Shown here in pieces: positions 6,809 through 23,338 of a stretch of 64,000 bases of DNA; position 1 is the first letter of the stretch, and the number at the start of each line of letters is the position of its first letter. The notes under the pieces were generated by a model. The model was not told the DNA's origin, searched no databases, and worked only from the letters and a program-made list of their open reading frames with translations. Origin of the DNA: a virus (taxonomy: Duplodnaviria; Heunggongvirae; Uroviricota; Caudoviricetes); IMG/VR virus record IMGVR_UViG_3300032038_000031, positions 42,370 through 106,369 of that record; one strand, given 5' to 3'. The position numbers were made by a program, and so were the translations under genes.

Positions 6809-7285
6809 TTATAATAATGATATTGTACAATTACTTTCTTCATCAGAAAAATCAATTTTCCAACCTTTTTCTTTTGCTTTTTCAACAATTTCATTTGGAA
6901 TTGCGGGAATCCCCTTAGGGATATGAATAGACTTAGAATTATTACCCCAATTATCAATAAGAATATTATTTAATTCTTGAGATAGCTCTTCCGCCAATTG
7001 AGTAACTACTTTTGACCAAAAGAAATAAACAGCTTCATCATTTAAACTATGATCTTTTTTTAGTTTTGTCCCATCCATTAAGTAATCTAAATTTTTAATT
7101 TTTATTTTTTCTTTAGTTGTGAAGTACATTTCGTTTTTATTGTAATTTAATATGTAATTTGTAAAATCCTTTATAGATAAACTATTTGCATGATTAGGGT
7201 TGTTATGAAAATTAAATTCAGGTTTTAATGTTACTGTTCCAATTTCTATATCTTTATTATTTATTTCCTGTAGAACCAAATCCAT
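6809..7285 (-). CDS. hypothetical protein
   Basis: 158 aa ORF, no recognised motif. Confidence 0.45.
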   Translation of the reverse strand: MDLVLQEINNKDIEIGTVTLKPEFNFHNNPNHANSLSIKDFTNYILNYNKNEMYFTTKEKIKIKNLDYLMDGTKLKKDHSLNDEAVYFFWSKVVTQLAEELSQELNNILIDNWGNNSKSIHIPKGIPAIPNEIVEKAKEKGWKIDFSDEESNCTISLL

Positions 7286-7457
7286 TTGAACCTCTTTCTG
7301 TTTCTTCTAAATCATTAACTTCAATAAATTTTCTTATTGGCTGATAAGGAATTAATACTAATTGTGCAATGCGTTCGACGGGTTCTACTATTTGACTTTT
7401 GTTACTGTCATTATATAGTGGAACTTGAATATTCCCTCTATAATCGCTATCAATAAC
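7257..7457 (-). CDS. dut: dUTPase exon 2 (motifs III-V: VIDSDYRG...RIAQLV...RGSNGFGSTG)
   Basis: C-terminal dUTPase motifs only; joins exon 1 to give ...LANCVG|VIDSDYRG matching E. coli GNLVG|LIDSDYQG. Confidence 0.85.
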   Translation of the reverse strand, partial: VIDSDYRGNIQVPLYNDSNKSQIVEPVERIAQLVLIPYQPIRKFIEVNDLEETERGSNGFGSTGNK

Positions 7458-7460
7458 CAT

Positions 7461-7530
7461 TTGTTATCCTAAAAGTTTTTTATCTTTTAGTTCTTATAAT
7501 TTCTTATAAGTTCAGCATATCTTTTCACCT
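7461..7530. repeat. intron 3'-end repeat (similar to 33839..33905)
   Basis: ttatcctaaa(a/g)gttttttatc(t/c)tttagttcttata..aagttcagcatatctttt. Confidence 0.65.
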
Positions 7531-7605
7531 TTATTTAATTGGTGCTGCGGCCTCGTGGGAACCCTATTAAAGGGTTGAGATATTAAAAATCTCTACATTA
7601 TATTC

Positions 7606-8091
7606 TTATATAAAATAGAATTTATATCCATGAGTTTGATTTCTTTTACCATTTAAGACTTTTGATATTGTCCCTTTATTTATTCCAAGAATGGCTCCAG
7701 CTTCAGTAACCGATTTAAAAGCTATTGTTTCTTTTGTTGTAATATTTTCTGCTATAATCGGTTTTTCTTGAGTTTTTAAACCTGTTTTTCTTGCGTGGTT
7801 ATCATTTTCTTTTGCTGTAACCCATTCAAGATTTTCTACTTTATTATTAGTCTTATCTCCATCTTTATGATTTACATAGGGTAAATTTTCGGGATTTGGG
7901 ATAAAGTATAAAGCTACAAGCCTGTGTATTCTAAATGTTTTTTTAATTCCATTTTGACAAAAAGTATAAGTAAGATATCCGCTTTTATTTAAATATGGAG
8001 TTAAAACATTCCCTTTTTTTATATTCTTAATATTCCCTAAATTGGAAATACCATAATTATCAAACTCATTTATTATAATATATTTTTCCAT
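7606..8091 (-). CDS. HNH homing endonuclease (intron-encoded)
   Basis: NHKDGDKTNNKVENLEWVTAKEN HNH motif; C-terminal NUMOD-like DNA-binding tail; RBS AAGGAGGA. Confidence 0.75.
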   Translation of the reverse strand: MEKYIIINEFDNYGISNLGNIKNIKKGNVLTPYLNKSGYLTYTFCQNGIKKTFRIHRLVALYFIPNPENLPYVNHKDGDKTNNKVENLEWVTAKENDNHARKTGLKTQEKPIIAENITTKETIAFKSVTEAGAILGINKGTISKVLNGKRNQTHGYKFYFI

Positions 8092-8213
8092 TTTGTATCC
8101 TCCTTATTATGACTCAACGAGCCTTTAAAGAAATATAATTTTTCAGTTTACCTATGCGTTGCCCCTGACTTATCTTAAATAAGCCTTCGGTTCTGATTAA
8201 CTTGCCTTACGGT

Positions 8214-9074
8214 TTAGTCTTCCAGCTTAATTCCGCAGTTTTTTGTCGGCATTATTTTAATAAACTGACTTTTTTCTAATAATAGATCTTTTAAACATAA
8301 TTCATTATAATGAGTATAAGGTATTCTAATTAAAGGTATGTTGTTATTTTTGCACCATTCATTTTTAATTAAGTCATGGTTATGTGTATATTCATAATCA
8401 AAAACAGAATCTTTATCAAAATGTTGTTCGCCATCATATTCTATAAGATATTCATTATTAATAAAGAAATCAAAAGGTAATTCTTTTTTATCTTTGCAAG
8501 TAGGAAATTTTTGCTCTACTGTATAAGAAATATTGGCTTTATCTAATAATTCAGCTATTTTTACATTTCCTTTTGAAATATTTGAATGTAATCCGCAACT
8601 AAGGCTTCTTCCTTGTCTTAAAGAAGTACCTAAAACATCTTTTTCTGTTCCGCAATCACATCGACAGTGCCAGTATATAACTCCGCCAGCATTTCTTTTA
8701 TCTGTTGGATATAAAACAGTCCATTTTCCAAATTTTTGGTTCGTTATATCTATCATAGTTGTTTTTGAATTATTATTTTCTTTTCCTCTACAATGATTAT
8801 CATACCATATTTTTGTAATCATTCCTCGACTTACATTAAAATGATTAGCCAATTCAGTTGAAGTCATATCATTATAATGTTCTATAATATATAACTTATC
8901 TTCATTTTTAAGTTTATATTGCTTATTTTGTGATACATCATATCCAATTCTTTTTGCATGATTTAGAATGGTAGTCTTGTCACACCCGTAAAATTCACCC
9001 ATTTTCCGAGAACTTTTTAGTTCTTCATATTTTGCAATAAAATCTTCATTAGATCCAAAATCTATTTTTTTCAT
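8214..9074 (-). CDS. intron-encoded endonuclease: HTH + Zn-finger N-region, C-terminal PD-(D/E)xK/Vsr-like 'EYDGEQH' domain
   Basis: GKWTVL..YWHCRCDCG Zn module shared with 40260..40964; 'LIEYDGEQHFD' shared with 20723..21676; RBS AAAAAGGAG. Confidence 0.5.
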   Translation of the reverse strand: MKKIDFGSNEDFIAKYEELKSSRKMGEFYGCDKTTILNHAKRIGYDVSQNKQYKLKNEDKLYIIEHYNDMTSTELANHFNVSRGMITKIWYDNHCRGKENNNSKTTMIDITNQKFGKWTVLYPTDKRNAGGVIYWHCRCDCGTEKDVLGTSLRQGRSLSCGLHSNISKGNVKIAELLDKANISYTVEQKFPTCKDKKELPFDFFINNEYLIEYDGEQHFDKDSVFDYEYTHNHDLIKNEWCKNNNIPLIRIPYTHYNELCLKDLLLEKSQFIKIMPTKNCGIKLED

Positions 9075-9165
9075 AGAAGCACTCCTTTTTTATTTTGATA
9101 TTATATATAAAAATAACTAAAACCAAAATAATCACGATTGCCCAGGAGAAATAAAAATATTATTT

Positions 9166-9429
9166 ACCGACACAATTTGCTAATCTAAGACCTTTTTTTG
9201 TACTTAACCCACTTCTTGGGAACACCGCCCCAAAATATCCTTTAGGAATAACCATTGCAAGATCAGTAGGTATAACTACTGTTTCTTTTGATTTTATTTG
9301 AATGGGTTTCTCTATTGCTGATTTTAAATCATAACCTGCCGCATCTTTACTTCCTCGTGTAGGTTCTGAACCAAAAGGAGATAATTTTTTAAATAGTACA
9401 GAAATACCTTTATTTTTTTTAAAAAACAT
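9166..9429 (-). CDS. dut: dUTPase exon 1 (motifs I-II: AAGYDL, PRSGL)
   Basis: N-terminal dUTPase motifs; ORF terminates 1 codon after splice point. Confidence 0.85.
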
Positions 9430-9973: not shown

Positions 9974-10411
9974 TTAATAACCTACTTTAATAATCGCTGC
10001 ATCATATGGAAATAAATGATAACAGTTAACTAATTCTTTTTTATTTATGTCTTTCTCTTTTGCTACTAACAATGGAGAAGAAACAATCCAGCATTCAATA
10101 GCCCCAAGATTATTAAATTCAATATGATAAATTTTTCCTCTATTGTACAGACACTCATAAAGATCAGTTTTTAATTGATTAATATTCTTTTTAGTACTTT
10201 CTTTCATTTGAAAAATTGTATAATCACTTTTTTCTGAACACAATAGCATTGAATACTTTGATTCGCCGTATTTTTTTACATATTTCTTTAGGCTTTTGTC
10301 TAGTTGTTCTTGCACTTCTTCTTTAGAAAGCTTTTTATAGTTTTTTAACACATAATCTTTATTTATATCATATAAAGTCTGTCCTGTATTTATTTTTATA
10401 TCTTTTCCCAT
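9974..10411 (-). CDS. hypothetical protein
   Basis: 145 aa ORF. Confidence 0.4.
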   Translation of the reverse strand: MGKDIKINTGQTLYDINKDYVLKNYKKLSKEEVQEQLDKSLKKYVKKYGESKYSMLLCSEKSDYTIFQMKESTKKNINQLKTDLYECLYNRGKIYHIEFNNLGAIECWIVSSPLLVAKEKDINKKELVNCYHLFPYDAAIIKVGY

Positions 10412-10902
10412 GATAACTCCTTTAGATTATAAATATTTTGATTAAAAGAACCTCTTAAAAATAAGGTCACATCTCGTTTTTCTTCTTCATATCTACCATC
10501 AATTAGATAATCTATATTTTTCATTATCTGATTAATTATATCAAAATTTTTATTATTTTTCAATTCAGTTACAGTATATCCAGTCCATAGAAAAATTTTA
10601 ATAGAAGGATATTTTTGTCTAACTGTTTGAATTATATCATTTACAAAAGAAATATTTTCATCACAAAGAGGTTCTCCGCCTAAAACAGAAAAATTTCTTA
10701 AAATTCCATTATCCGCAATAGCTTGAATAATTTGTTCTTTAATGTTTTTGGGGATAAGACCTCCAGAATTAAAATCCCACATATCTTTATTATGACAACC
10801 TGGGCAATGATGCGGACATCCGCTAACCCAAAGGCTAACGGATATTCCTATTCCATCTATAAAATCATTTGGCATATATCCATTATAATATTTGTTCTGC
10901 AT
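10396..10902 (-). CDS. nrdG: anaerobic ribonucleotide reductase activating protein (radical SAM)
   Basis: VSGCPHHCPGCHN CxxxCxxC cluster near N-terminus, ~168 aa, directly downstream of nrdD. Confidence 0.85.
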   Translation of the reverse strand: MQNKYYNGYMPNDFIDGIGISVSLWVSGCPHHCPGCHNKDMWDFNSGGLIPKNIKEQIIQAIADNGILRNFSVLGGEPLCDENISFVNDIIQTVRQKYPSIKIFLWTGYTVTELKNNKNFDIINQIMKNIDYLIDGRYEEEKRDVTLFLRGSFNQNIYNLKELSWEKI

Positions 10903-11551
10903 TATCTTCTAGCCCCCTAATTAAACTTGAATGTCTAATTCTTGATTCTACTTCTTGTTGTTTTCCCGCATTAAAAGAAGTAGTATAGTTACCTGTTAAA
11001 TAACCCGTTACTCTGCGGAGTTGTTGGATATTAGTGCTACCACACTCAGGACATTTATCATTAAATTCTCCTGTATAACCACAATTTAAACAAGTATCAT
11101 TAGGGACATTAATTGCAAAATATGGAATATCTTTATCCATTGCATAATTTACTAATGTTTCTAATGCAGAAGTATTTTTTTCCATACCTCCATCTAATTC
11201 AACATAAGTAATACAACCAGCATTACTATATCCAGTTAATTGAGATTCAATATCAATTTTTTCAAAAGGAGATACTTTCTCCCATACTGGAACATGCATA
11301 GAATTAGTAAAGAAGTTTTTATCAGAAACTTTTGGGATAATTCCATATTGTTCTTTAAACTTTTTCATAGCTGTATAGCAAAGATTCTCAGCAGGAGTCA
11401 TATATACCCCAAAATTTAGTTTATATTCTTTCTTAAATTGATCACATCTTTTTCTAAATAATTCCTCAATTTTTTTTGCCAATTTCATTCCTTTTTGAGT
11501 AGTATGATTTTCGCCTATTAATAATTGCAGAGTCTCTGCTAATCCTAACTG
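10883..11551 (-). CDS. nrdD: anaerobic RNR NrdD exon 5 (glycyl-radical C-terminus)
   Basis: Zn-ribbon CLNCGY..CPECGS and RVTGYL glycyl radical motif; begins QLGLAETLQLLIG right after intron-terminal G. Confidence 0.85.
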   Translation of the reverse strand, partial: QLGLAETLQLLIGENHTTQKGMKLAKKIEELFRKRCDQFKKEYKLNFGVYMTPAENLCYTAMKKFKEQYGIIPKVSDKNFFTNSMHVPVWEKVSPFEKIDIESQLTGYSNAGCITYVELDGGMEKNTSALETLVNYAMDKDIPYFAINVPNDTCLNCGYTGEFNDKCPECGSTNIQQLRRVTGYLTGNYTTSFNAGKQQEVESRIRHSSLIRGLEDNAEQIL

Positions 11552-12762
11552 CATTTTTTATACCCTCTCTTTCGAGATATTTACATAGGGTTTAGACTAT
11601 ACCATAAATTGATTGATAGATTTTTTGATTTTCTAATTTATTTTTTCTAATAGGACATTTAAATTGTTGAGTTATTTCTTTCCAAGTTAATCCTCTTGAA
11701 ATATCTCCAACAGTATTTTTTGCTATATTATATTCTTTACCTATATTTTCAAGTGTAATATTAGTAAAGCATAATTTATAACATATCTCTTGAACTTCTT
11801 TTTGTGTTATTTTATTTTGAAAAGTATATTTTTGCACTGGCTTTCTTAAAGGGTATGATAAATCTTTTGGACACCAACTATTTGTTCCTCGATTAATTTC
11901 TCCTATTGTATATGTGTGAACATCTGTTGCTAATCCAATTTCTTCTTGAGTCATATTGGTATTTAAAAGCATATCTAAAATAATATTTATTTTAGTTTCA
12001 TCAATATAACTTCGTGAAGGTGTCTTTCTAATTGGATAATTAATCGAATTATCAATAAAAGATTTACCTCTATTAATATCACTTATACAATAAAGAGTAA
12101 CTCCATATTTAGCTCCAATAATATGAAATGGATATTCAGTATTTTTTAATAATTCTTTAATCTCATCAGCTTGATTAACTGTTAATTTTTGAGTTCCTGA
12201 ACCCCATTGTCCACCTTGGGTTAAATTATAACCCTTTCCAGTTGTATAAAAACTTTCAAAATAATTTATATAGTATTTTTCTTTTTCATTTAATTCATTA
12301 AATGGAATATTATCTTCAACAAGTTCTAATGAAAAATTATTTCTTCCATATTTTTTTATTGCCCTATGAAAATAAGTATTGTCATTTAATTGAGTTTGAT
12401 GTTTATAATCTCTTTGTTCAAGAGTTTGTTTTGTTTGTCCTATATATACCTTTCCATTTATTAAATTAGTATATTTATAAATTTTGCCATTTTCTATCAT
12501 AAAACTTGCCATCCTTTCATGTTTTTTCCTATTATTCCATGAAAATTAATTAATGTCAAATTTTCAATTTTGCCCATTATAGTCGTTGAACGTTCCTCCG
12601 GCCTGGAGGCTTCGCTGCGTCTGGTTTCCCAATCCTTAACGATTTTACCCTACCTTGGTCGCTAACCTCGCCGCTATTATATTCCTATAATAGTTTGGTT
12701 GTTAAGGCTTAAGGGGGTTCCCGCAATTTTGAGCATTTATAGTGGGCCAGTGTTAGGCTTTA
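11552..12762 (-). mobile_element. group I intron 4 of nrdD with GIY-YIG ORF
   Basis: exon ...HGTLAVG(ggT)|intron|QLGLAETLQ, phase 0; intron contains classic R element GUUCAACGACUAUAA and GC-rich core (cagacgcagcgaagcctccaggccggagg). Confidence 0.8.
11592..12512 (-). CDS. GIY-YIG homing endonuclease (I-TevI-like)
   Basis: KIYKYTNLINGKVYIGQT...R..E..N motifs; RBS AAAGGA. Confidence 0.8.
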   Translation of the reverse strand: MASFMIENGKIYKYTNLINGKVYIGQTKQTLEQRDYKHQTQLNDNTYFHRAIKKYGRNNFSLELVEDNIPFNELNEKEKYYINYFESFYTTGKGYNLTQGGQWGSGTQKLTVNQADEIKELLKNTEYPFHIIGAKYGVTLYCISDINRGKSFIDNSINYPIRKTPSRSYIDETKINIILDMLLNTNMTQEEIGLATDVHTYTIGEINRGTNSWCPKDLSYPLRKPVQKYTFQNKITQKEVQEICYKLCFTNITLENIGKEYNIAKNTVGDISRGLTWKEITQQFKCPIRKNKLENQKIYQSIYGIV

Positions 12763-13221
12763 ACCCACCGCTAAAGTACCATGCTTAAGAGCTGAATAAA
12801 TTCCTTCTTCAGGAACATATCCCGCCATAGTATGATTTTCATACATAAACTTTGCACTTTCCATTGGTTGAGAGCATATATAATTAAATCTTTCTAATAA
12901 AGCATCTTTTGCTTCAAAAATACTTTTATCTAAAAGGTTCATAAAAGTATTTATATAATATTCTTCTGGGATTGTTAAATCATCTTTATATTTATTATTA
13001 ACTTCTTCTATTGCCTCCATAGCTATTGTTGGCATAATAATTGTTACAGGACAGATATTTCCTCGTCCATCTTTTTGAGCAGCAGAAACATAATTATCAT
13101 ATAAATGTCCTGTCTCTATTACTGATTGAATGTTCATTTGGTAAGAATTGAACGCGTTAATGTCTGCTCCATTCTGGGTTCTGCATCCCATGGTCGAGAA
13201 CAATTCTACTGGAGTCTGGAT
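12763..13221 (-). CDS. nrdD: NrdD exon 4 (MGCRT...GRGNICPVTIIMPTIAME region); 5' boundary approximate (13221 or 13242)
   Basis: matches NrdD 'sMGCR...GRfN.GvvtiNLp' segment; 3' end fixed by intron 4. Confidence 0.7.
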
Positions 13222-13934
13222 CTGTTTAATTTTTATTTTTTTCATTTTCATAATCCTCCTTAAACTTCCAAATATAACCTCCAGCAGTTTTTTGCTTACC
13301 ATGGAGAACAGTTGAAATACCGCCCTTCCAAATATTATTTTTTTCTCCTGCTTCAAGAACGCTATTATATTCTGCAATAAAATTACCTTTTAAATCAAGT
13401 TGAACAACAGGTTTTTTTGGAGGTCTTCCTTTAAAACCGTTTGCTTTAGCTGATTCATATTGATGTTGACGAGCAAGAGGAAAAGAAACATTTTCTGCAT
13501 GAGTACACCATCTTAAATTATTTACATTATTATTTAATTTATTTCCATCTATATGGTCTACTTTATTTCTACCTAATTTAATATCTTCTTCAGTTTTTGG
13601 AATAAAAATTTCAGCAACTATTTTATGTACCATTCCAAAACTTAAAGTATAATATCCCCAATCATTAATTTTTAATTCTATTAATTTTCCATCTCTTTTT
13701 ATATTACCAAGATTTGAAACTTCCCAAGTACTAGCATAAGGATGTTTATCATCTTTTAAATCTCTAAATACTTTCCATATTTCTTCCATATTAAGCATCC
13801 TCCTCATATATTTCAAGCATTAAAATATTTTGTAATTCTGGATTTTCTTCTAATCTTGTAATTAAAATATTATATTGCTTTTCCGTTAAAGAATTTATAT
13901 ATTCTTCTTTTTGTTTTCTATCATACTCAATCCA
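13222..13934 (-). mobile_element. group I intron 3 of nrdD with HNH ORF (boundaries approximate)
   Basis: NrdD homology breaks after ...PNYANCDVKMQKD (gaT) and resumes at ...IQTPVELFSTMGCRT; HNH stop lies 4 nt before candidate 3' splice (..taaacaG|ATC). Confidence 0.55.
13226..13789 (-). CDS. HNH homing endonuclease
   Basis: VDHIDGNKLNNNVNNLRWCTHAEN HNH_3 motif; RBS GAGGAGG; start MEEIWKV. Confidence 0.75.
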   Translation of the reverse strand: MEEIWKVFRDLKDDKHPYASTWEVSNLGNIKRDGKLIELKINDWGYYTLSFGMVHKIVAEIFIPKTEEDIKLGRNKVDHIDGNKLNNNVNNLRWCTHAENVSFPLARQHQYESAKANGFKGRPPKKPVVQLDLKGNFIAEYNSVLEAGEKNNIWKGGISTVLHGKQKTAGGYIWKFKEDYENEKNKN

Positions 13935-14075
13935 ATCTTTCTGCATTTTAACATCACAATTAGCATAATTTGGATATAATCTTTTAGCTGTTGATTTTAA
14001 TGCTAATTTAAATAAATCATAATTTGGTTCACCAGGATTCCGATTAACCCCTTTCATACATTGAAAAATTACACA
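13935..14075 (-). CDS. nrdD: NrdD exon 3 (CVIFQCMKGVNRNPGEPNYDLFKLALKSTAKRLYPNY...)
   Basis: strong match to NrdD segment 'IFklKeGVNfNeGDPNYDLF.LA...aKR.fPNF'; the listed 102-aa ORF 13791..14099 is this exon read through into intron. Confidence 0.65.
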
Positions 14076-14513
14076 CATTTTGTACCGTTGCTTTCGCAAT
14101 ATTTTAACACTTATTAAAAAGTCGGATTAGACTATATCATTACTAATATTTATAAATATTAGTACAAGGCACTTCGGAACTATATCGCTATAGCCCTACT
14201 CCCATAAGGGATAGTCGTTAGACCTTATTTTTGTTCTATGAAATAATAACCATTAATAGGTTTTTTATCTTGAACTCTTCTCCATAGAGTTGTAAGACTA
14301 ATATTATATTTTATTGCTGCTTTTGTTATAGATGGAAAACTTTCTATATATACACCATTTAGAACAAAAATCTTGGCACAGGATTGTCATATCTTTCGAC
14401 TTAGAGTTTCCCTGTTAGCAGAAATATTTCAACAGTCATTTCCTACTATATTTTATTTCCACACCCGTCTCTGACGGTTCACCTTGTTTTACTTCCCCAG
14501 TAGATTATATATT
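14076..14513 (-). mobile_element. ORF-less group I intron 2 of nrdD (~438 nt) with decayed endonuclease remnant
   Basis: exon ...TSIFP(ccT)|...|(aaaatG)CVIFQ; R-like UAACGACUAUCCC and S-like GCGAUAUAGUUCC elements at 14160-14220. Confidence 0.65.
14226..14385 (-). pseudogene. start-less remnant of HNH endonuclease C-terminal DNA-binding (NUMOD/IENR-like) domain inside intron 2
   Basis: frame ...KIFVLNGVYIESFPSITKAAIKYNISLTTLWRRVQDKKPINGYYFIEQK* resembles tails of 7606..8091 and 13226..13789 products; no start, stop-bounded. Confidence 0.45.
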
Positions 14514-14639
14514 AGGGAAAATACTTGTTTTATGAAATTTGCCTACACCATTTAAGCATCCGTTTAATATTGCTCGAATAACAAGTCTTCCTTCTGGTAA
14601 TGTACAAGTTCCTAAATTGATAGATGTAAAAGGCAATTG
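14514..14639 (-). CDS. nrdD: NrdD micro-exon 2 (42 codons: QLPFTSINLGTCTLPEGRLVIRAILNGCLNGVGKFHKTSIFP)
   Basis: not in ORF track; matches T4/E. coli NrdD 'QVPFSSINFGTDTSPEGRMV...GETPIFP' as recalled from memory; bounded by intron-terminal G (tattG|CAA) and exon-terminal U. Confidence 0.7.
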
Positions 14640-14859
14640 CAATAGTTATTAACCATAGGCTTTTTATCCTATGCTCTGGAGATTTCTCTCATTTTCATCG
14701 AATGGTCAATTCCATTCCAGTGTAGCGTACATCTTCACCTTCGCCATTACGCGGTCAGGGTGGACACTCTTGACGGGATTATATTTATTCACCCGCTACG
14801 CGTTACGGTGACTCCTAGCCTTTCGCTATCTAGAAGTTTACCTCGGTATTGTCATATTT

Positions 14860-15693
14860 TTAACATTTTAAATTATAATGCTGTAAGAAATTATCATATA
14901 TATCTTTTTTGCGATTAAGATAGATAGTTGAATAATTATACATCCAATCTCCAAATGTTTGCATATCTTCAATATTTTGGATTTTTAATTCACTTAATTG
15001 TCTATCTTTATAATCATAAACCAATGGCTTTTGTTTTAAATTAAGATGTTCAAAACTATAGTTAGAAATATCTTCCATTAATTTATGAGTTCCACAAAAA
15101 CTAATAGAATGTAAAAATCTATTATGTCCATCTTTATTAGGACTTGGTTTTGCCATTATACTACCATCACCATCAAATATTCCTCTAATAAGATGAGGCA
15201 TCATTTCATATGAAACTTTAGGAAGATAGGTGCTGTAACTTTTTCGAGGAACCACCCCATATTTAGCAAGGTCTTCTGCCATTATATTGCTACGAACAGC
15301 TATCTGTCCACATCCTCTGCCATCATGCCCTACTGAAGTATTAGCGTGTAAAACCTCTTTAAATTTTTCAAGCATATATTCATCTTTTAAATTCAATGTA
15401 ATGGATATAGAGGCTTGTCTTCCAGTATCATCTTTAAAAACATTTCCATCTGAAATAAGTAAACCTAAAAAGTAAGCCTTTGCTTCTTCGTTTATATCTT
15501 GAAAGAAATGCTCTCTCATGTTAGGATTATTTAATTTTGCTTTAGTATATTTTGGAACATCCTTTAATATTTTAGTTACTGTTGGATGACTTAATTCATA
15601 TTTATCTTCAACTTGTTTTATAGTCATCGGTTGAGATAAATAATATTTAATAATTTCTTGCTTTAATTCTTCTGTTATAATTTTTCTTGGCAT
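14860..15693 (-). CDS. LAGLIDADG homing endonuclease (two-motif)
   Basis: YFLGLLISDGNV and RGIFDGDGSI motifs; RBS AAAGGAGGA. Confidence 0.8.
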   Translation of the reverse strand: MPRKIITEELKQEIIKYYLSQPMTIKQVEDKYELSHPTVTKILKDVPKYTKAKLNNPNMREHFFQDINEEAKAYFLGLLISDGNVFKDDTGRQASISITLNLKDEYMLEKFKEVLHANTSVGHDGRGCGQIAVRSNIMAEDLAKYGVVPRKSYSTYLPKVSYEMMPHLIRGIFDGDGSIMAKPSPNKDGHNRFLHSISFCGTHKLMEDISNYSFEHLNLKQKPLVYDYKDRQLSELKIQNIEDMQTFGDWMYNYSTIYLNRKKDIYDNFLQHYNLKC

Positions 15694-15707
15694 AATAATG
15701 TCCTCCT

Positions 15708-15736
15708 TTGCAATAATATTATATCAAAATATTTAA
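15708..15736 (-). promoter_or_regulatory. consensus sigma70 promoter TTGACA-17-TATAAT inside intron 1, upstream of LAGLIDADG ORF
   Basis: minus strand TTGACAagtgttaaatattttgaTATAAT. Confidence 0.6.
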
Positions 15737-15846
15737 CACTTGTCAAATATTTTCTTGCATTATTATACCAAAATTAAAAACTTAGAGTTTACCGATTTTG
15801 CCCAATTTTTTACTAAGAATTTCTTCTTAGGGAAACCAATTTGTTA

Positions 15847-16791
15847 ATTTCCGCTTCTTGACTGCAGTGTGTTGAGATTATGGAACATCCCTTCTGCAGC
15901 TTGTTCGACTTCCTTTTTGGTCATATCCATTGCATATTTATAAGTGTCAGGACATTCCTTATAAATTTCAGCATCTATACTCTTAGTGGGATCAATTCGT
16001 TCAATTATGTACTGTTGATAATTGCTCTCGAGTAAAGGTTCTGATATATACTTTAAACCATCAACATAATGCTTATAAAAACTCTTTCTTACATATGGAA
16101 CCATAGTCCAATCTAGGTGAGAAGCAGAGACTCCCCCAAATTGCTGAAGACTTTGTAATTGGAATGTTACCGCCAATAGTTGAAAAGCTGTACTTACACT
16201 GTTTGCAGGTCTAACATCTGCTTGTCTAGTATTAAATCCTTTTTCTAATAAATCATCAATAGGCAATGTTAAACAATTATGCATTCCTATTGAATAAGAA
16301 TCTAAATCATGAACATAAATACGATTATGTAAATGATTATATCTCATACGAGGAGACATTACACGGTTTAAAGCATCATCTTTTAAAATAATATTAGAAG
16401 CTTCACCTTTTCGACCCCCAAAAGACATCTCATCTAAATTTGCATTTTGATTTTCAATATTTGCCCCTAATAATTTATTTCTCATTTCTTTTGTTAAAGG
16501 GGTCTTTTGATTTCGATTTCGATTTCGTTCTTCTCTATAAAGAATAAAAGCTTTAGCAACATCTTTTCGTTTAGTTGCCATTAATCCTTTTTCAACTAAA
16601 TCTTGAATTTCTTCTACTGTTAAAAGCTCATCTTGTGCTTTTGTTTCAATATAAGTAGCAATATTTTCTGATTTTGTTAAAGCGTAATCAGAAATATTCC
16701 CATCAATAGCACAAAAAGCTTTTTTTATAGCGGAAATAATCTTTTCTTTGTTGAATTGTTCTATTCTTCCATCTCTTTTTTCTATAATCAT
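15847..16791 (-). CDS. nrdD: NrdD exon 1 (ATP-cone + N-terminal catalytic region)
   Basis: MIIEKRDGRIEQFNKEKI ATP-cone; ...NLNTLQSRSGN matches NrdD 'NLN..SRaGsQ'. Confidence 0.85.
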
Positions 16792-16860: not shown

Positions 16861-17529
16861 TTAAAATAATTTGACATTATTAAAATATTCTTCTAGTTCT
16901 TTTACCTTATCAGTAAAATCATAAGTAAATATATTAATATCATCATCATTTTTAAAACCAATACAATTAAAATCTATCTCTTTAAAATCTTCTACATCAC
17001 TTAAAAATCTTCTACAAATTTCAACACAGCTTGGATTTTCTTCTCGATTTAAGCATCTCTGAAGTCGAGTCTTTGAAGGTACTGAAATAAAAACGGGGCA
17101 AACTAGTAAATTAGGATCTCTTAATAAACAATGAATACTTTCAATATCATAACAACCAATATTAATTTTTTCTTTATCTAATTTATCTTTTTCTGTCCCA
17201 TAAAACCAAGAATTATAACAAACTGCTTCAATTAATAAATGCTTATCTAATAAGATTTCTTCAAAAGTTTTTTTATCTACAAAATAATAATCTTTTTTAT
17301 CAACCTCATAATCTCTTTTAGGACGAGAAGTTGTTCTAATAATATTAGCAAAAGTATTAGGAAATTGTTTTAATAATTGATTTTTAATTGTATCTTTTCC
17401 CGCTCCGCTTGGTCCAAATAAAGCTACAATTTTAATTTGTTTTTCTGTTGGGGGAGGACTCCAATAAGCGAGATATTCTCGCTTAAAGGTTTCTTCATTC
17501 ATCGAAATAGTTTCCTTGTTGTCTATCAT
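16861..17529 (-). CDS. guanylate-kinase-like nucleotide kinase
   Basis: GPSGAGKDT P-loop + TTSRPKRDYEVDKKDYYFV (GMK 'TTRPpRpgEvdGvdYhFv'). Confidence 0.6.
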   Translation of the reverse strand: MIDNKETISMNEETFKREYLAYWSPPPTEKQIKIVALFGPSGAGKDTIKNQLLKQFPNTFANIIRTTSRPKRDYEVDKKDYYFVDKKTFEEILLDKHLLIEAVCYNSWFYGTEKDKLDKEKINIGCYDIESIHCLLRDPNLLVCPVFISVPSKTRLQRCLNREENPSCVEICRRFLSDVEDFKEIDFNCIGFKNDDDINIFTYDFTDKVKELEEYFNNVKLF

Positions 17530-18911
17530 GTCTAAGTGTTAATTCTCCTTTTTCATTTATATCTTCAATTAAATATAGTTGATGAGTAGGAGTATGTTTA
17601 TAAGTTTTTGTAACAAAAGTATCTTCTCTTCTATACCCAGTTACTAAAATCTTCCTACCTCTAGTGAACCAAGATTTTTCTATTACTTTTTTTACTCCAT
17701 CTTCATTAATTGCAGAAATTTGTCTTTTATACATTGCATAATACTCTTTAGTAAATTTAACAGTTACAACTCCTGTTGGGGTTAATAGTACAACTGATGA
17801 ACGAGCATCATTTTTATCTAATACTGTTCCTGCAATCTTATAAGTTTTCCAAATAGGAATATCATGTCCTTTTCTTTTAAAATAATATTCCGCCTGAGGT
17901 TCTGATGGTAATTGGAAAAAATCAACTAAACCATACTGATGAGCATTAACATTAGCTAATTCATGAGCATGACTATAAAAACATACACTTTCCATTTCCC
18001 AAGCAGATATTGTACCAGAACCATATTTTTCCCATTCCTTTAGAAAAAGACATTTATTATACTGCTCTAAAATATCTTTTTGATTTTCTTTTAACCAATC
18101 TCTAATATAATCCATTGAATTTTTATAATACTTATCCCAAATTTTTATTGGAATAAGTAAAACATTATCTTGCATTTTTATAGAATCTATAATAGGAGAA
18201 AAATATTCTTCTAATTTTTCATTATCTATTAATAAACATTTCTTATCTGTTGATATTGTACTGTAATATCCATCTTGAATATACACGCTATGTTTAAAAA
18301 ATTTATTAATTTGATATATACCAATTTCTTTTTTAAATTTAGAAGGAATTAATTTTTCTTTTAACAAACCATTAAAATTCTGTAAAGTTAATTTATTCTT
18401 TTTTCCACAAATACGATCAATATAATAAATTAAAATAGCTTTACGAGGAGCTTTAGGAAAAATTTCTTTAGCCCATTTTTCTGTATTATCAAAAGCTCCA
18501 GCTTTAATCAATGAAATCATAACTGTTTTTGTTTGAGGGCATCTGTTTAAAAAATCTTTTAAACTCTTATAAGGTCTTTTTGCAATAATTTCTTCTACTA
18601 CATTTGTTCCTACTTTATTAACTCCTTTTAAACCAAATAAAATAGCATTATTTTTAATATCTGGGCGGAAACCATAACTAGAATTATTTATATCTACTAA
18701 AGACACTTTAACACCTTTAGATGTAATTTTTCCTATTGCCCCCGCAATTTTCCCATAATTAGTACTTTTTTCTTTTTGGTTTTTTATATCTTCTTGTTCT
18801 AATGAACCACTATTTACAATTAAACAAGCAGTATTCCAATAAATTGAATTCCAGTGAGTTGATAATATTACAGTTTGCACTCCTATAAAGCTATAAGCTA
18901 ATGCGTGAATA
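17495..18911 (-). CDS. dnaE: DNA polymerase III alpha (DnaE-like) exon 4
   Basis: begins (I)HALAYSFIGVQTVILSTHW ~ E. coli '[20 protein letters not shown]'; 'VKVSLVDINNSSYGF' ~ DnaE 'vlpPDVN.S'. Confidence 0.7.
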
Positions 18912-19069
18912 CATTATTAATTTTAATTAATAACTGACTATTTTTTACGAGGTTTGTAGTGAGAATTGGCGGTTCTCTCCCCCGCACACTATTTCCCAGA
19001 ACGTATCAATAGTTCTAGTACTCTCCGTCTAACCAGAGATAGTCGATACAACGTTTCTTGATAATATGA

Positions 19070-19990
19070 TTATTCAAAATATTTTTTAAAAATTTCTTTA
19101 TTTTTTTCTAAATTAGAACGAATAGGGTAAATTAAATATTCTTGTTTATTTGCTCTGCCTTGTCCTAATTTTTTAATTGTGCTTTCTGCTTTTCCATATT
19201 TTTGAGCTATTTTTACTAAACTATCAGGAGAAAAAATAATATCTTTTAAACAAGGAATAATCCAACTTTTATCTGCGCAACCTTTAATTATAAGAGGATA
19301 TTTTTCATTTGGATCAAAATAATATTTCCCCGTATTTATCTTTGATAAAAATCCAGCACTTTTTATATCCCATTTTTTTTGTATTTCAGAATAAGATTTT
19401 CCAGATTTTATATCTTCTTTTATTTTTTTAATATCATCTTTTGTAAATCTTCCTTCTCCTGTGAAGTCTTTTTTTAATGGATAATTTAATTTTGGATTTT
19501 TATAATTGATTCCAGTATTAATATTACTTAAAAAAGTTCTTGTTAATCTTGGATTAAAATATTCAATAATATCATCATATTTTTCTCCATTAATTAATTT
19601 CTTTTGTATTAATTCTATTTCTTCTCCTGTAAAAATTTTACCTCTATCTTTTAATTCATCCCAAGAAAGTTTTTCTCTTAAATGTTCATCTCCACCAAAA
19701 GTAATATTATAACCACCTTGACTAATGTGACTTTTCTTTTCTTTTATCCAATATTGTTCTTTTTCGTTTGCTTCTTCCTGAGTTAAATTTGATTCAATAA
19801 CTTCAAAAGTAAAATTTTCAATTCCATATTTTCTAATGGCATTATGTAAAGGATAATTATAACTATGACTATTTTTATTATAACTATCACTTTTATGACC
19901 ATTAAATCTTTTTTGCAAATTATTGGTTTGTCCAACATACTGATGACCGTTTATTTTATTCGTATAAATATAAATAAATTTATCTCTCAT
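19070..19990 (-). CDS. GIY-YIG homing endonuclease
   Basis: FIYIYTNKINGHQYVGQT... GIY-YIG motifs; paralog of 11592..12512. Confidence 0.8.
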   Translation of the reverse strand: MRDKFIYIYTNKINGHQYVGQTNNLQKRFNGHKSDSYNKNSHSYNYPLHNAIRKYGIENFTFEVIESNLTQEEANEKEQYWIKEKKSHISQGGYNITFGGDEHLREKLSWDELKDRGKIFTGEEIELIQKKLINGEKYDDIIEYFNPRLTRTFLSNINTGINYKNPKLNYPLKKDFTGEGRFTKDDIKKIKEDIKSGKSYSEIQKKWDIKSAGFLSKINTGKYYFDPNEKYPLIIKGCADKSWIIPCLKDIIFSPDSLVKIAQKYGKAESTIKKLGQGRANKQEYLIYPIRSNLEKNKEIFKKYFE

Positions 19991-20054
19991 TTTTCGGTCC
20001 TCCTTTCTACTGTATTTGAAAAACCTATAATCAAATTATCAAGATTTGTCACGA

Positions 20055-20140
20055 GATTTTACCCTCGTTAGCATATATTTCTATCTTTGCCAGAGATATT
20101 AATGAAATATATACCCCCATGATGAGTGGGTTAAGTGTGT
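20055..20140. repeat. intron 5'-region repeat (similar to 47400..47465)
   Basis: cc(c/t)cgttagcatatat...atatacccc(c/t)atgatgagt(g/a)gg(t)taa in dnaE intron C and gyrB intron. Confidence 0.65.
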
Positions 20141-20153
20141 GAGCACCATTACA

Positions 20154-20531
20154 ATGCTAAAGGAATATCCCATTTGCGGTCCAATTCCGCATTTCCAAAT
20201 ATAATTACCTAAACAAGGACTCTTTGCTTGTGCTAAAGTTTTTTCTTTTAATTTAGGAATTTCATTCATCAATTTTTTACCTACAGTTTTACGAGCTTGG
20301 TTAGCTTCAGCTAAACTAAAATTACATATATTAGGATCCATTAACATTAACATTAACTGCTCCTGTGAAGGAGGTACGCCAAAAGAAGACTTAAAGTAAG
20401 GTTCTACAATTTTTTGTTCTTCTTTAGTTAATCCATATTTATCCATTTCTTGATACCATAAATTAATATCTTTTTTAAAACGGATATATTTTTCCATAGG
20501 CGTTTCTTCGCCTTTTTCTGCAGTCATAAGT
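20154..20531 (-). CDS. dnaE: DnaE exon 3 (...EKYIRFKK...SFGVPPSQEQLMLMLMD..FSLAEANQARKTVGKKL...GYSFS); 5' boundary +/-6 nt
   Basis: matches DnaE 'TYGvivYQEQvMqia..GfslgeADlLRRAMGKK' and 'GYGFN'. Confidence 0.65.
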
Positions 20532-21876
20532 CTCATTAATCCATTAGCATCCGATAATTCTAAAATATTTTTTGGCTTTATTTTTTTTGCCGCTTGACTG
20601 CCAACTTCTGATTCAACATTTATATTCGATGAGAGACGCTACTCTCTCACCCGTTCTCTTATGAACTGCTTACAATTTCTTGTAAGATTAGACTATATCT
20701 TCTAAGAATCCCATTTCCACTATCAATCGCTTATAGTGTACTCCCTTTCGGGATAGTCGTTGAACATTAAACTTAACCATTCTTTTATTTCTTCTTCTGA
20801 ATTTGTATAATCAAATTGTTTAAATTTTATATCATTATCTAAACACCATTGCTTTTTTATAGCATCACTTTGTTGAATCTTTTTTAATTTTTCTTCTCCT
20901 CCAAAATGTTCATAAGCTTTAAAGTGTTGTTCACCATGATATTCAATAATATAATTTTGTTCAGGGAGATAAAAATCAAATCTATATGAATGACCATCTA
21001 AAATGAGAGGATATTCTCTAATATATTTAACTTTTAATTCGTCTAAATAATATCCAATTATTTGTTCAAATTTTGAACCTAAATTGCAATATTTACATTT
21101 TATAGGTCCATCAATTAAAGATATTCCCCATCTATAGTCTTCTTTTCCACAGTTAAGACATTTTATTTTATATTTAGAATTGCGATTAGTAAAAACTTCA
21201 TTTTCACATAAAATAAAGTTTTGTTTATTTAAGAAATGCCATTTTTCAATAAATTCACTATTTGTGCAATTTCTTGTAAATTTTTTCTCTGGATTACAGT
21301 TACATTTTTTATGACCATTACTAATATTGCCATAATATTCGTAACTAATTTTTCCGCAATTTAAGCATTTTACTTTTATTGGTTTTTTTGTGTCTATAGA
21401 TTTAGTTTTACTTAATTGATAGCTGTCTTCGTCATTAAAAAGAAAATAATAATGTTTTTTTTGTAAAACTAGATTTATTTTTTCTGCTTTAATTTTTCTT
21501 TTTTGACAAGGACATTTGATTTCTCTCCGAATAAAATTTCTTTTTTCATCCGAATGTTGTTCTCCGCAATAACTACATTGCCAATTAAAAATATCTCGAT
21601 TTTGTAACTTTAGAAAAAAATCTTGATTTTCCATAATAGCTGAGTTATCAGGATTTAATATTATTAATTGTTGCATCCATTATTCACATCCTTTTTTGTT
21701 TCTATATGATGTAAAAAATGGTTAAGTTTCTTTGCTGCGAATTGTCCAATTTTTTTCATTTTTACCATCCAATATTTATTACAATATCTGCTACACTATA
21801 CATCACTGTTAGCTGCGGTAGAAAAAACTTAAGGAGTTTCTCGCAATTAAGGATTTTTTATTTCAGCTTAATTCTC
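20532..21876 (-). mobile_element. group I intron B of dnaE with endonuclease ORF (boundaries +/-6 nt)
   Basis: R element GUUCAACGACUAUCCC (20745-20760) and S element AAGAUAUAGUC (~20690-20705) downstream of ORF; exon homology break at ...DLFQL / LMTAEKG. Confidence 0.6.
20723..21676 (-). CDS. intron-encoded endonuclease: triple Zn-ribbon N-region + PD-(D/E)xK/Vsr-like C-domain
   Basis: three C..C..C..C modules; 'YIIEYHGEQHFKAYEHFGG' shared with 8214..9074. Confidence 0.5.
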   Translation of the reverse strand: MQQLIILNPDNSAIMENQDFFLKLQNRDIFNWQCSYCGEQHSDEKRNFIRREIKCPCQKRKIKAEKINLVLQKKHYYFLFNDEDSYQLSKTKSIDTKKPIKVKCLNCGKISYEYYGNISNGHKKCNCNPEKKFTRNCTNSEFIEKWHFLNKQNFILCENEVFTNRNSKYKIKCLNCGKEDYRWGISLIDGPIKCKYCNLGSKFEQIIGYYLDELKVKYIREYPLILDGHSYRFDFYLPEQNYIIEYHGEQHFKAYEHFGGEEKLKKIQQSDAIKKQWCLDNDIKFKQFDYTNSEEEIKEWLSLMFNDYPEREYTISD

Positions 21877-22085
21877 ATCAACTGAAAGAGGTCAAGAACC
21901 TCATTATTTTCAATAGCTGTCCAAATTTTTGAATCACTCATATCTAAAATTTCAGGATGTAAATATTTATTATATGCTTCTCTTAAAGTCATATTAGGAT
22001 CAATAACTTTATCTTTTTGTAACAATTTAATACATTGAGCAATTTTATCTTGGACTTTTGTTAATAATAGATCATATTTTGTCAT
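21877..22085 (-). CDS. dnaE: DnaE exon 2 (MTKYDLLLTK...EVLDLFQL)
   Basis: joins exon 1 ...CEAAG|MTKYDLLL ~ DnaE 'vEalGLLKMDFLGL'; 'VLDLFQL' ~ 'GVFQLES'. Confidence 0.6.
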
Positions 22086-22099
22086 CGTGTATATCCATT

Positions 22100-22215
22100 A
22101 TTTCTAATGGCACTGACTATATCTTACTTATTATAAAATAATAAGAATACCGTTTCGAACTGCGTACCAATAGCAGTCCTACTCTACTTAATGTAGATAG
22201 TCGATAGGCACATCG
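22100..22215. repeat. intron 3'-region repeat (near-identical to 46262..46374)
   Basis: ctgactatatcttacttattataa...tttcgaactgcgta(c/t)caatagcag(t/c)cctactc shared by dnaE intron A and gyrB intron. Confidence 0.75.
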
Positions 22216-23115: not shown

Positions 23116-23338
23116 TTCTTTCTCCTTTCTTCTAAGATTTTATAAATCTTATTTTATTACCCTCTTAATAAAATAAGTTTTAGTCTGAACAAATTTAACA
23201 ACTTCGCCCGGGATTATCTTCAACTCAACTTGCTAAGACTTCCCCGGTAGCTATATAGGTATTTTTTACTTACAATTTCTTTGCCTATATAACCTCGCTG
23301 GTAAGGCGATTAGATATTATTGGGCTAGACTTTCGTTA

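Follow-up and report, generated by a model that had tools for sequence, protein, structure and literature searches.

A phage nrdD gene apparently carrying three group I introns and probably split into two chains by a free-standing HNH endonuclease gene

The nrdD gene (sunY) of phage T4 contains a single group I intron with the endonuclease I-TevII. The gene described here is another phage nrdD, which encodes a class III (anaerobic) ribonucleotide reductase (RNR). It lies in a stretch of 64,000 nucleotides (nt), called the window below, that corresponds to positions 42,370 to 106,369 of IMG/VR record IMGVR_UViG_3300032038_000031. The carrier is a phage of ~127 kb with 27% G+C, and the window is equally AT-rich (27% G+C). 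All coordinates are positions in the window, and the nrdD features lie on its minus strand, where the gene spans 16791-10883. The reading preferred here, with a probability of roughly 0.7, is that four mobile elements have invaded this nrdD. Three would be group I introns; the fourth would be an HNH endonuclease gene, free-standing, by which NrdD is split into two chains.

A precedent for such a split is the nrdA gene of phage Aeh1. It is divided by the HNH gene mobE into nrdA-a and nrdA-b, whose separately made products combine to give an active enzyme (Friedrich et al. 2007; Crona et al. 2011, PMC3045599). Oppositely charged tails are essential in Aeh1 NrdA, and mobE overlaps nrdA-b (PMC3045599). 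The window locus is alike in that the catalytic subunit of an RNR is cut near its active site by a free-standing HNH gene. Likewise, the N-terminal half ends at a stop of its own and the C-terminal half begins at a start of its own. There is an overlap between the endonuclease gene and the downstream half, and the new termini are oppositely charged. The two differ in the enzyme, which is a class Ia NrdA in Aeh1 and a class III glycyl-radical NrdD here. The charge polarity is also reversed, since the window has an acidic tail on the upstream half and a basic head on the downstream half.

Three group I introns in one gene are known from orf142 of Staphylococcus phage Twort, and up to three are found in the pol and terL genes of Bastillevirinae (PMC11878797, PMC3073962). 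An earlier model-made reading of the window from its letters (the sequence-only reading) had held that phage genes are known with only one or two introns, which these cases contradict. The window locus shares with them three apparent group I introns in one phage gene, short internal exons, and IA-type introns with endonuclease open reading frames (ORFs) or their remnants. In the window, however, the host gene is nrdD, which also carries a non-intron split, and the introns represent three ribozyme lineages and three endonuclease families.

Another example of a fragmented nrdD comes from the Jug (jumbo gut) phages of Bacteroides and Phocaeicola, where the gene occurs in up to four fragments and metatranscriptomes showed no splicing at one nrdD junction (PMC12880540). 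In both cases a phage nrdD is fragmented by group I introns and endonuclease genes. The Jug phages are an unrelated phage group, however, and the window gene is in five pieces, not four. Its apparently unspliced junction is in addition resolved to stop and start signals, selection on the tail, and an unsplit ancestor-like form. The locus richly illustrates phenomena that are already known and does not represent a new kind.

The nrdD ORFs listed for the window encode 315, 45, 102, 205 and 223 amino acids (aa). Five pieces match the Pfam family NRDD in order (profile positions 2-154, 155-204, 205-249, 224-360 and 362-562), with an ATP-cone at the N-terminus and a Gly_radical domain at the C-terminus. 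The class III assignment follows from the ATP-cone, the NRDD barrel, the Gly_radical domain with RVxGY, the MGCR cysteine loop and the adjacent NrdG. Invariant NrdD motifs are kept in an alignment (A1) with uninterrupted homologues. The spliced protein proposed in the sequence-only reading retrieves thousands of uninterrupted NrdDs, the top one being P0001, which is colinear and 88% identical. With this homologue as the query, the closest solved structure is the NrdD 8p23 (E 6.5e-122). The order of the Pfam matches, together with colinearity to P0001 and its gene, agrees with the earlier claim of five colinear pieces.

P0001 is encoded on a syntenic metagenomic contig, L002, which carries a polymerase fragment, guanylate kinase, NrdD and NrdG. 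In the window, the 3' end of nrdD is overlapped by a 168-aa NrdG-like gene (10396-10902). The L002 gene colinear with it (96% nt identical) has a Fer4_12 match and a weak Radical_SAM match.

The strongest guide to the intron boundaries is L002. In a blastn comparison its nrdD aligns with the window in exon blocks of 85-96% identity that break exactly at 15847|14639, 14514|14075 and 12763|11551. Across these three sites the L002 homologue is colinear, with 91-96% nt identity. Because the homology breaks exactly there, the intervening sequences IVS1, IVS2 and IVS4, numbered in gene order, are real and correctly delimited, as is the 126-nt micro-exon between IVS1 and IVS2 (Table 1). IVS1, for instance, is a clean insertion relative to L002. 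The boundaries given in the sequence-only reading are exact for these three, and its micro-exon of 42 codons is recovered in L002 at full length.

The same architecture is found on ~127-kb contigs from other samples (L084-L086 and L090). In IMG/VR, a scan with P0001 returned only uninterrupted nrdDs, which were 65-71% identical, and nothing closely related to the window. A megablast search of the whole locus against phage genomes gave short matches only, within the ribozyme and HNH parts.

All three introns are in phase 0, and each ends in an in-frame start codon that abuts the 3' exon (TTG 14640-14642, ATG 14076-14078 and ATG 11552-11554). Because of these start codons, ORF finders list the exons as separate ORFs. 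Since the micro-exon is 126 nt long, exon skipping, as in Twort and SIOphi, would keep the frame.

IVS1, IVS2 and IVS4 look like group I introns and are apparently self-splicing. Their junction peptides (SGN|QLPF, IFP|CVIF and AVG|QLGL) agree with uninterrupted NrdDs. Each can form a P1 helix, of 6, 7 and 7 contiguous base pairs (bp), respectively, in which the splice site is marked by a U.G pair. The guide starts at the canonical position (intron nt 11-16), and the terminal intron nucleotide is G in all three. A P10 helix of 5 bp is found in IVS1 and one of 4 bp in IVS4, and P10 is weak in IVS2. Peaks of G+C content coincide with the cores of IVS1 and IVS4 (0.42-0.50) and with the 5' part of IVS2 (~0.37). 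Minimum-free-energy z-scores were dropped as evidence, as they do not separate cores from exons (IVS4 core z -0.9 vs exon 4 z -2.35).

The structure of IVS1 was derived from alignments of homologues. It consists of P3, two hairpins at the P4-P6 position, P7, P7.1, P8, J8/7 (GAAGAUG) and three P9 hairpins. P3 (15804-15800/14765-14761) and P7 (14801-14797/14729-14725) are interleaved in a group I-like pseudoknot, and the P7.1 hairpin has an invariant 14-nt loop. P1 (15852-15847/15836-15831) pairs GGAAAU with GUUUCC, including the U.G, and P10 (15841-15837/14639-14635) pairs AAUUG with CAAUU, so that the two flank the guide sequence. Covariation was counted in seven sequences of the family over the P3, P7, P7.1 and P9 helices. 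Of the alignment cells, 99.2% are paired, and compensatory changes occur in 25 of 45 pairs. No shuffle out of 500 was as good, and slid controls pair in at most 42%. P8 was excluded from the count because MAFFT sets the 5' strand of the window two columns out of register; that P8 covaries among the homologues can be read from their alignment. A first guess for P7, GUAGCG/CGCUAC, was rejected, since covariation shows that GCGGG/CCCGU is a local hairpin and that P7 is GCGUA/UACGC.

Relatives of IVS1 are intervening sequences of crAss-like, staphylococcal and clostridial phages, and of the gyrA or topoisomerase genes of phages AR9, phiR1-37 and BpSp. The stretch of ~230 nt that follows the LAGLIDADG ORF shares 81% identity with the sequence interrupting terL in Clostridium phage vB_CpeS-1181. 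The AR9 gyrA intron is 92% identical to IVS1 over 89 nt, and the AR9 gyrA coding sequence is annotated as joined.

IVS2 has the P7.1 and P7.2 hairpins typical of IA2 introns. Its P1 (14519-14514/14498-14493) pairs UUCCCU with GGGGAA, including the U.G, its P7 (14216-14211/14135-14130) pairs GACUAU with AUAGUC, and its P8 has 11 bp. Two sub-threshold matches to the Rfam model Intron_gpI cover P4-P6 (14415-14338, E 7.8e-5) and P8-J8/7-P7'-P9 (14163-14109, E 0.25). A homologous intron in a relative (L088) holds an intact 192-aa NUMOD4/HNH_3/NUMOD1 ORF, and IVS2 retains only a remnant. In this remnant, 31 of 44 residues are identical to residues 145-188 of the L088 ORF (tblastn E 4e-19), and it matches Pfam HTH_psq (E 4e-6). 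The description of IVS2 as an ORF-less intron with the decayed tail of an HNH endonuclease was therefore accurate.

In IVS4 the sub-threshold Intron_gpI match spans 12784-12487 (E 2.7e-4, model positions 1-253, in a search restricted to 1.3 kb). P1 (12768-12763/12747-12742) pairs GUGGGU with GCCCAC, including the U.G, P3 is at 12735-12731/12575-12571, P7 (12584-12579/11600-11595) pairs GACUAU with AUAGUC, and P8 has 7 bp (12570-12564/11612-11606). P4, P6 and P9 were also verified. In its 5' core, IVS4 shares 72-74% identity with introns of Bastillevirinae phages, among them the third intervening sequence of SIOphi terL; this gene self-splices in vitro (PMC11878797). With the HNH gene described below, the Pfam matches of the ORFs in IVS1 and IVS4 bear out the presence of three endonuclease families (LAGLIDADG, HNH and GIY-YIG).

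The last seven codons of the GIY-YIG ORF (..QSIYGIV*, 11592-11612) double as the 3' strands of the IVS4 helices P8 and P7. Because of this overlap, its translation and the folding of the ribozyme core should be mutually exclusive. Promoter-like sequences, near-perfect matches to the sigma-70 type, precede both intron ORFs. In IVS1 the LAGLIDADG ORF is preceded by TTGACA-17-TATAAT (15746-15718, 12/12, extended -10 TG) and AAAGGAGG, and in IVS4 TTGACA-17-AATAAT (11/12, extended -10 TG) lies at 12559-12531, just upstream of the GIY-YIG ORF. The location of these sites suggests that the endonucleases may be expressed independently of nrdD; overall, promoter-like sites are not more numerous than in shuffles.

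The third interruption, IVS3, contains an HNH gene and lacks intron features. Homology with L002 ends at the NCD codon (13954) and is regained only from 13074 on. A search with Intron_gpI over 13980-13060 at E<=10 gave no match, under conditions that detected IVS2 and IVS4, and blastn on the region returned HNH coding similarity only. A P1 helix was sought at all candidate 5' junctions, with a best result of 1-4 bp. There is no G+C peak of the ribozyme type either, as the G+C content is 0.21-0.26 vs 0.37-0.50 at the three ribozyme cores. Only ~160 nt lie outside the HNH ORF, and the flanks differ from the invariant WSGNAGYD / P.TY of intact NrdDs. IVS3 is thus not supported as an intron, and of the four group I introns in the sequence-only reading three are supported. 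The fourth has no group I feature, but a conserved stop and restart and a selected tail instead. Its junction, ..AAAGAT|...ACAG|, is one arbitrary choice. The rule that the upstream exon ends in U and the intron in G holds with a P1 U.G at the other three sites; since no P1 helix can form at IVS3, it has no weight there. For the same two reasons, the arbitrary junction and the missing P1, the proposed single product of 779 aa is unsupported, its boundaries at the third interruption being unconfirmed.

What is found instead at this site is a series of translation signals. Past NCD, exon 3 stays open in frame for another 53 codons (VKMQKDW...EIYEEDA), up to a TAA stop (13793-13791). The ATG of the HNH gene follows 1 nt after this stop and is preceded by GAGGAGG. 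The C-terminal fragment starts inside the 3' end of the HNH gene, where AAGGAGG (13261-13255) is followed after 9 nt by an ATG (13245-13243), and this start overlaps the last 6 HNH codons. The fragment begins with MKKIKIKQIQTPVELF-STMGCR, which contains the thiyl-radical cysteine motif, followed by a lineage-specific 22-aa insert and the remainder of exon 4. The arrangement of Shine-Dalgarno sequence, 9 nt and ATG AAA AAx ATA is conserved in the relatives L089 and L087, but an upstream ATG is not. Among diverged database ORFs (61-90% identity), at least 6 start with MKKI[IVK][IV][KRS]..., followed by STMGCR, and 2 further ones carry the MKKI head after a short upstream extension, which makes 8 diverged clusters in all.

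The 53-codon tail is present in 6 database protein clusters. Compared with the most divergent copy, that of L087, the proportion of synonymous differences (pS) is 0.95, which is saturated, and the proportion of nonsynonymous differences (pN) is 0.23; closer pairs give an omega of 0.2-0.33. The tail is under purifying selection, and is therefore translated and selected. It is acidic, with an isoelectric point (pI) of 4.4 in the window (4.3-4.6 and a net charge of -4 to -6 overall), and is predicted to be helical by AlphaFold2 (AF2) with moderate confidence. The head, MKKIKIKQ, is basic (pI 10.5; 10.3-11.3 overall). That the tail might be part of the HNH protein was considered and rejected, since the HNH enzyme has an ATG of its own, from which it begins with the usual N-terminal motif.

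These observations lead to the following model. The three phase-0 introns, which lie in conserved motifs, would be removed by the usual guanosine-initiated splicing, restoring the reading frame. The HNH gene would sit inside a lineage-specific insertion of ~50 aa just upstream of the catalytic MGCR loop, and nothing would be spliced there. The upstream frame would run through the acidic helical tail to its own stop, the HNH enzyme would be translated from its own Shine-Dalgarno sequence and ATG, and a second pair of such signals, inside the HNH 3' end, would start the basic-headed C-terminal chain. After removal of the three introns, the predicted products are an N-fragment of 451 aa, which would hold the ATP-cone and the HNC cysteine region, and a C-fragment of 383 aa, which would hold the MGCR cysteine, the glycyl-radical domain and the zinc (Zn) ribbon. 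As in Aeh1 NrdA, the two chains would associate non-covalently. The sequence hallmarks of the Aeh1 type are present: an HNH gene lies between two colinear halves that each have their own translation signals, the tails at the split are oppositely charged, and the tail is under selection.

Unsplit relatives provide evidence on where tail and head came from. When the tail was used for a profile search, unsplit NrdD exons were recovered that lack the HNH gene and have tail and head joined in a single segment (P0177, P0166 and P0176). In L101, the contig that encodes P0177, the NrdD frame is uninterrupted across the IVS1, IVS2 and IVS3 junctions of the window, and a GIY-YIG group I intron is found at STMG|CR instead. 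When tail and head of the window are joined end to end, they are colinear with the insertions of the unsplit NrdDs, and insertion-less NrdDs such as P0001 lack ~50 residues at this position. Because tail and head are continuous in the unsplit proteins, the HNH gene is placed inside a pre-existing lineage-specific insertion, of which the two tails are the halves. In contrast, the Aeh1 model has the tails arising with the insertion of the endonuclease gene.

The same order of tail, HNH gene and restart occurs in L087-L090, phages that otherwise differ in intron content. Compared with L089, the tail is 90%, the HNH gene 95%, the head 89% and the 22-aa insert 90% identical, but the flanks (exons 1-3, the rest of exon 4, and exon 5) are only 74-76% identical. 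The whole segment is absent from L002, whose exons are 91-96% identical to those of the window. This contrast in identity and the absence from L002 indicate that the cassette of tail, HNH gene, head, MGCR segment and 22-aa insert has a separate and more recent history. The pattern fits movement of the cassette between phage lineages by homing with co-conversion of flanks, a transfer that the HNH enzyme would presumably drive. It can be proposed that the HNH gene acts as a portable split cassette, whose homing into an intact nrdD turns the glycyl-radical enzyme from one chain into two, which still function and are held together by acidic tail and basic head; the odds are put slightly in favour of this. 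The Aeh1 split is a single case, unlike the cassette of the window, which is found in many diverged phages with apparent horizontal transfer.

The 22-aa in-frame insert (NSYQMNIQSVIETGHLYDNYVSAAQ region, 13075-13146, minus strand) is flanked by ...DINAF and KDGRGN. NrdDs of the L002/P0001 type lack it; all split-family C-fragments and the unsplit L101 have it. It appears to be a second marker of the NrdD subfamily that gave rise to the cassette.

Another feature of this region is a stable predicted RNA hairpin (13190-13340, minus strand; -35.6 kcal/mol, z -3.9), in which HNH 3' coding sequence, CUGCUGGAGG, pairs with CUCCAGUAG just after the start of the C-fragment. The Shine-Dalgarno sequence and ATG of the C-fragment lie in its 30-nt loop. 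The predicted pairing is kept in L089 via G.U changes and in L087 only partly, and such a hairpin may control how the C-fragment or the HNH gene is translated. The tail contains the motif YI(N/D)SLxxxDYNKLIExLExNPELxxILxL, which is also found C-terminally in small proteins that do not look like NrdD (P0168, P0175 and P0178), one of them with a transmembrane segment. The tail motif may be a more widely used module.

The main alternatives concern the fate of the HNH interruption. It could be a fourth group I intron (13934-13222), so that four splicings would give one 779-aa NrdD. At the junction chosen in the sequence-only reading the upstream piece does end in T and the intervening sequence in G, the spliced NCD-STMGCR spacing would be 14 aa, near the 16 aa of insertion-less NrdDs, and Thomasclavelia phage TR-TP1 has a true HNH-bearing group I intron only ~10 codons downstream. 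However, that junction leaves only ~145 nt and 4 nt outside the HNH ORF, for an element with no Intron_gpI match at E<=10, no G+C-rich core and no internal guide sequence or P1 helix beyond 2 bp. The residues it would join, VKMQKD|IQTPVELF, do not match the invariant WSGNAGYD...P.TY. What would be its 5' part is a coding tail under purifying selection that unsplit relatives retain inside NrdD, and the Shine-Dalgarno sequence and ATG of the downstream half are conserved. A fourth intron is accordingly considered improbable. Joining of the two halves could also take place after translation, by a split intein as in fractured genes (PMC2677866), in which an N-half, a free-standing endonuclease and a C-half occur in the same order and the ends are oppositely charged. 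The residue after the head is indeed a serine (STMGCR). This possibility is very remote, since neither the tail nor the exon-3 ORF matches an intein or Hint family in Pfam, the tail is predicted to be helical, not beta-rich, and does not start with Cys or Ser, and the head has only 8-16 aa with no terminal His-Asn. Moreover, tail and head are part of the mature protein in unsplit relatives, and are therefore not excised.

It is also conceivable, though unlikely, that the HNH insertion inactivated nrdD, leaving a decaying pseudogene in a phage that relies on the host reductase. Other genes of the window are riddled with endonuclease insertions as well, and the split falls 13 residues before the catalytic cysteine. 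Against decay, the frames of all five pieces are still open and the invariant NrdD motifs are still there, as are the splice-site pairings of the three introns. The nrdG gene, which overlaps the 3' end, is intact, and the tail remains under purifying selection. The same split architecture also persists in lineages that have diverged to 61-75% identity, and the experimentally active split NrdA of Aeh1 is a precedent (PMC3045599).

Several points weigh against the reading of three introns and a two-chain enzyme. The Rfam model RF00028 has no match in the whole window at its gathering score (50 bits), and a search of 6.7 kb in E-value mode gave no group I match. The Rfam check proposed in the sequence-only reading thus yields sub-threshold matches for IVS2 (best score 27.4 bits) and IVS4 (26.2 bits), visible only in searches of about 1 kb, and none for IVS1 or the HNH interruption. 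The failure at the gathering score reflects model sensitivity and large ORF insertions, because the ORF-less AR9 gyrA copy of the IVS1 family also gave no match; for the same reason Rfam is unable to judge this intron family. P1 helices of 6-7 bp arise by chance in 6-14% of shuffles each, and are individually weak. The assignment of P4-P6 in IVS1 is tentative. So is P3 of IVS2, taken as CAAGGUG/UGCCUUG with no covariation support; a P3 directly upstream of J3/4 was looked for and not found. Both the splicing of IVS1, IVS2 and IVS4 and the non-splicing of IVS3 are deduced from sequence features, and association and activity of the two NrdD chains are assumed by analogy with Aeh1. The AF2 model of the intact homologue P0001 is poor (22 sequences; predicted local distance difference test, pLDDT, 64, and <50 around the split), so that the split is not placeable on the fold. 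Finally, a split 13 residues before the radical-bearing cysteine could inactivate NrdD.

Table 1. Features of the nrdD locus and pieces of the neighbouring dnaE-like gene, by window position (intron and cassette entries are predictions)
Feature	Position	Strand	Description
nrdD exon 1	15847..16791	-	315 codons; ATP-cone and first part of NRDD barrel; ends ...GGA AAT; 91.5-93% nt identity to L002
IVS1	14640..15846	-	1207 nt; IA-like candidate group I intron, AR9/CpeS-1181 family; ORF in loop of first hairpin after P3
LAGLIDADG homing-endonuclease ORF in IVS1	14860..15693	-	277 aa; Pfam LAGLIDADG_3 E 2.7e-6, 28 bits vs 22.5 cut-off
nrdD exon 2 (micro-exon)	14514..14639	-	42 codons, QLPFTSINLG...KTSIFP; 94.4% nt identity over exactly 126 nt (L002 4503-4628)
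IVS2	14076..14513	-	438 nt; ORF-less, Twort-like IA2 candidate group I intron
HNH endonuclease remnant in IVS2	14225..14386	-	stop-bounded; C-terminal helix-turn-helix DNA-binding module
nrdD exon 3 and C-terminal tail	13791..14075	-	NrdD homology to NCD (13954); 94% identity to L002 that far only
Putative mobile cassette	13075..13953	-	tail, HNH gene, head, MGCR segment and 22-aa insert
HNH homing-endonuclease gene, free-standing	13226..13789	-	187 aa; Pfam HNH_3 E 1.2e-8 and I-HmuI_NUMOD-like
nrdD exon 4 / start of C-fragment	12763..13245	-	ATG 13245-13243; NRDD profile to position 360
IVS4	11552..12762	-	1211 nt; candidate group I intron, ORF in P8 loop
GIY-YIG homing-endonuclease ORF in IVS4	11592..12512	-	306 aa; Pfam GIY-YIG E 1.7e-5, 25.5 bits vs 22.6 cut-off
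nrdD exon 5	10883..11551	-	222 codons and stop; Gly-radical domain and Zn ribbon; overlaps nrdG; 95.9% identity to L002
dnaE-like piece	23336-25246	-	PHP/DNA_pol3_alpha
ORF between dnaE-like pieces	22216-23115	-	GIY-YIG
ORF between dnaE-like pieces	20723-21676	-	317-aa ORF
dnaE-like piece	20099-20536	-	finger
ORF between dnaE-like pieces	19070-19990	-	GIY-YIG
dnaE-like piece	17495-18880	-	HHH_6

Introns at other sites are found in related nrdD genes. The NrdD of phage TR-TP1 is 62% aa identical to that of the window, and its gene has an HNH group I intron with typical R/S core elements at ACC AT|G GGT in STMGCR. Like T4 nrdD, it shares with the window gene the presence of group I introns with homing-endonuclease ORFs in a phage nrdD. 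It has one intron per gene, however, and none of the three window sites coincides with the TR-TP1 site. In L087 and L089, a Twort-like IA2 intron with a GIY-YIG ORF lies at HNL|NT, 8 codons upstream of the IVS1 site. L003 and L101 carry HNH or GIY-YIG introns at the MGCR codons (STMG|CR region), and a homologue of the IVS4 ribozyme is found near the 3' end of nrdD, after codon 713, in Enterocloster phage CB457P1 (L099). With these introns of relatives, this NrdD clade has at least 6 intron sites besides the HNH split site.

Other genes of the window are also in pieces. The neighbouring dnaE-like gene for the alpha subunit of DNA polymerase III (17495-25246, minus strand) is fragmented, and the related phage L089 has this gene in one piece of at least 1350 aa. 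The dUTPase gene (7257-9429, minus strand) is split into an 89-aa piece (profile positions 6-63) and a 67-aa piece (profile positions 67-129) ~1.7 kb apart. The gap carries a 286-aa helix-turn-helix (HTH)/DUF5889 ORF and a 161-aa NUMOD4/HNH_3 endonuclease. The dUTPase of the sibling genome L085 is intact (154 aa), so the population is polymorphic for this insertion.

Gene callers report loci of this kind as four or five unrelated small ORFs, and none of the three introns is reported by the Rfam group I model at its curated threshold. Read as proposed here, a single gene shows both known phage routes to survive when homing endonucleases invade an essential gene, namely RNA self-splicing at three sites and, apparently, fragment reassembly at one. 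The split family is widespread, and since unsplit, split and cassette-free alleles are all available, the evolutionary route is testable. If the reading as a portable cassette is true, this would be the first example of a split enzyme among class III RNRs or glycyl-radical enzymes, and tolerance of fragmentation would come from a pre-existing surface insertion and not from sequence created by the element. If the two-chain NrdD is active, the reassembly of genes in pieces would extend from the single class Ia case of Aeh1 to an oxygen-sensitive glycyl-radical enzyme.

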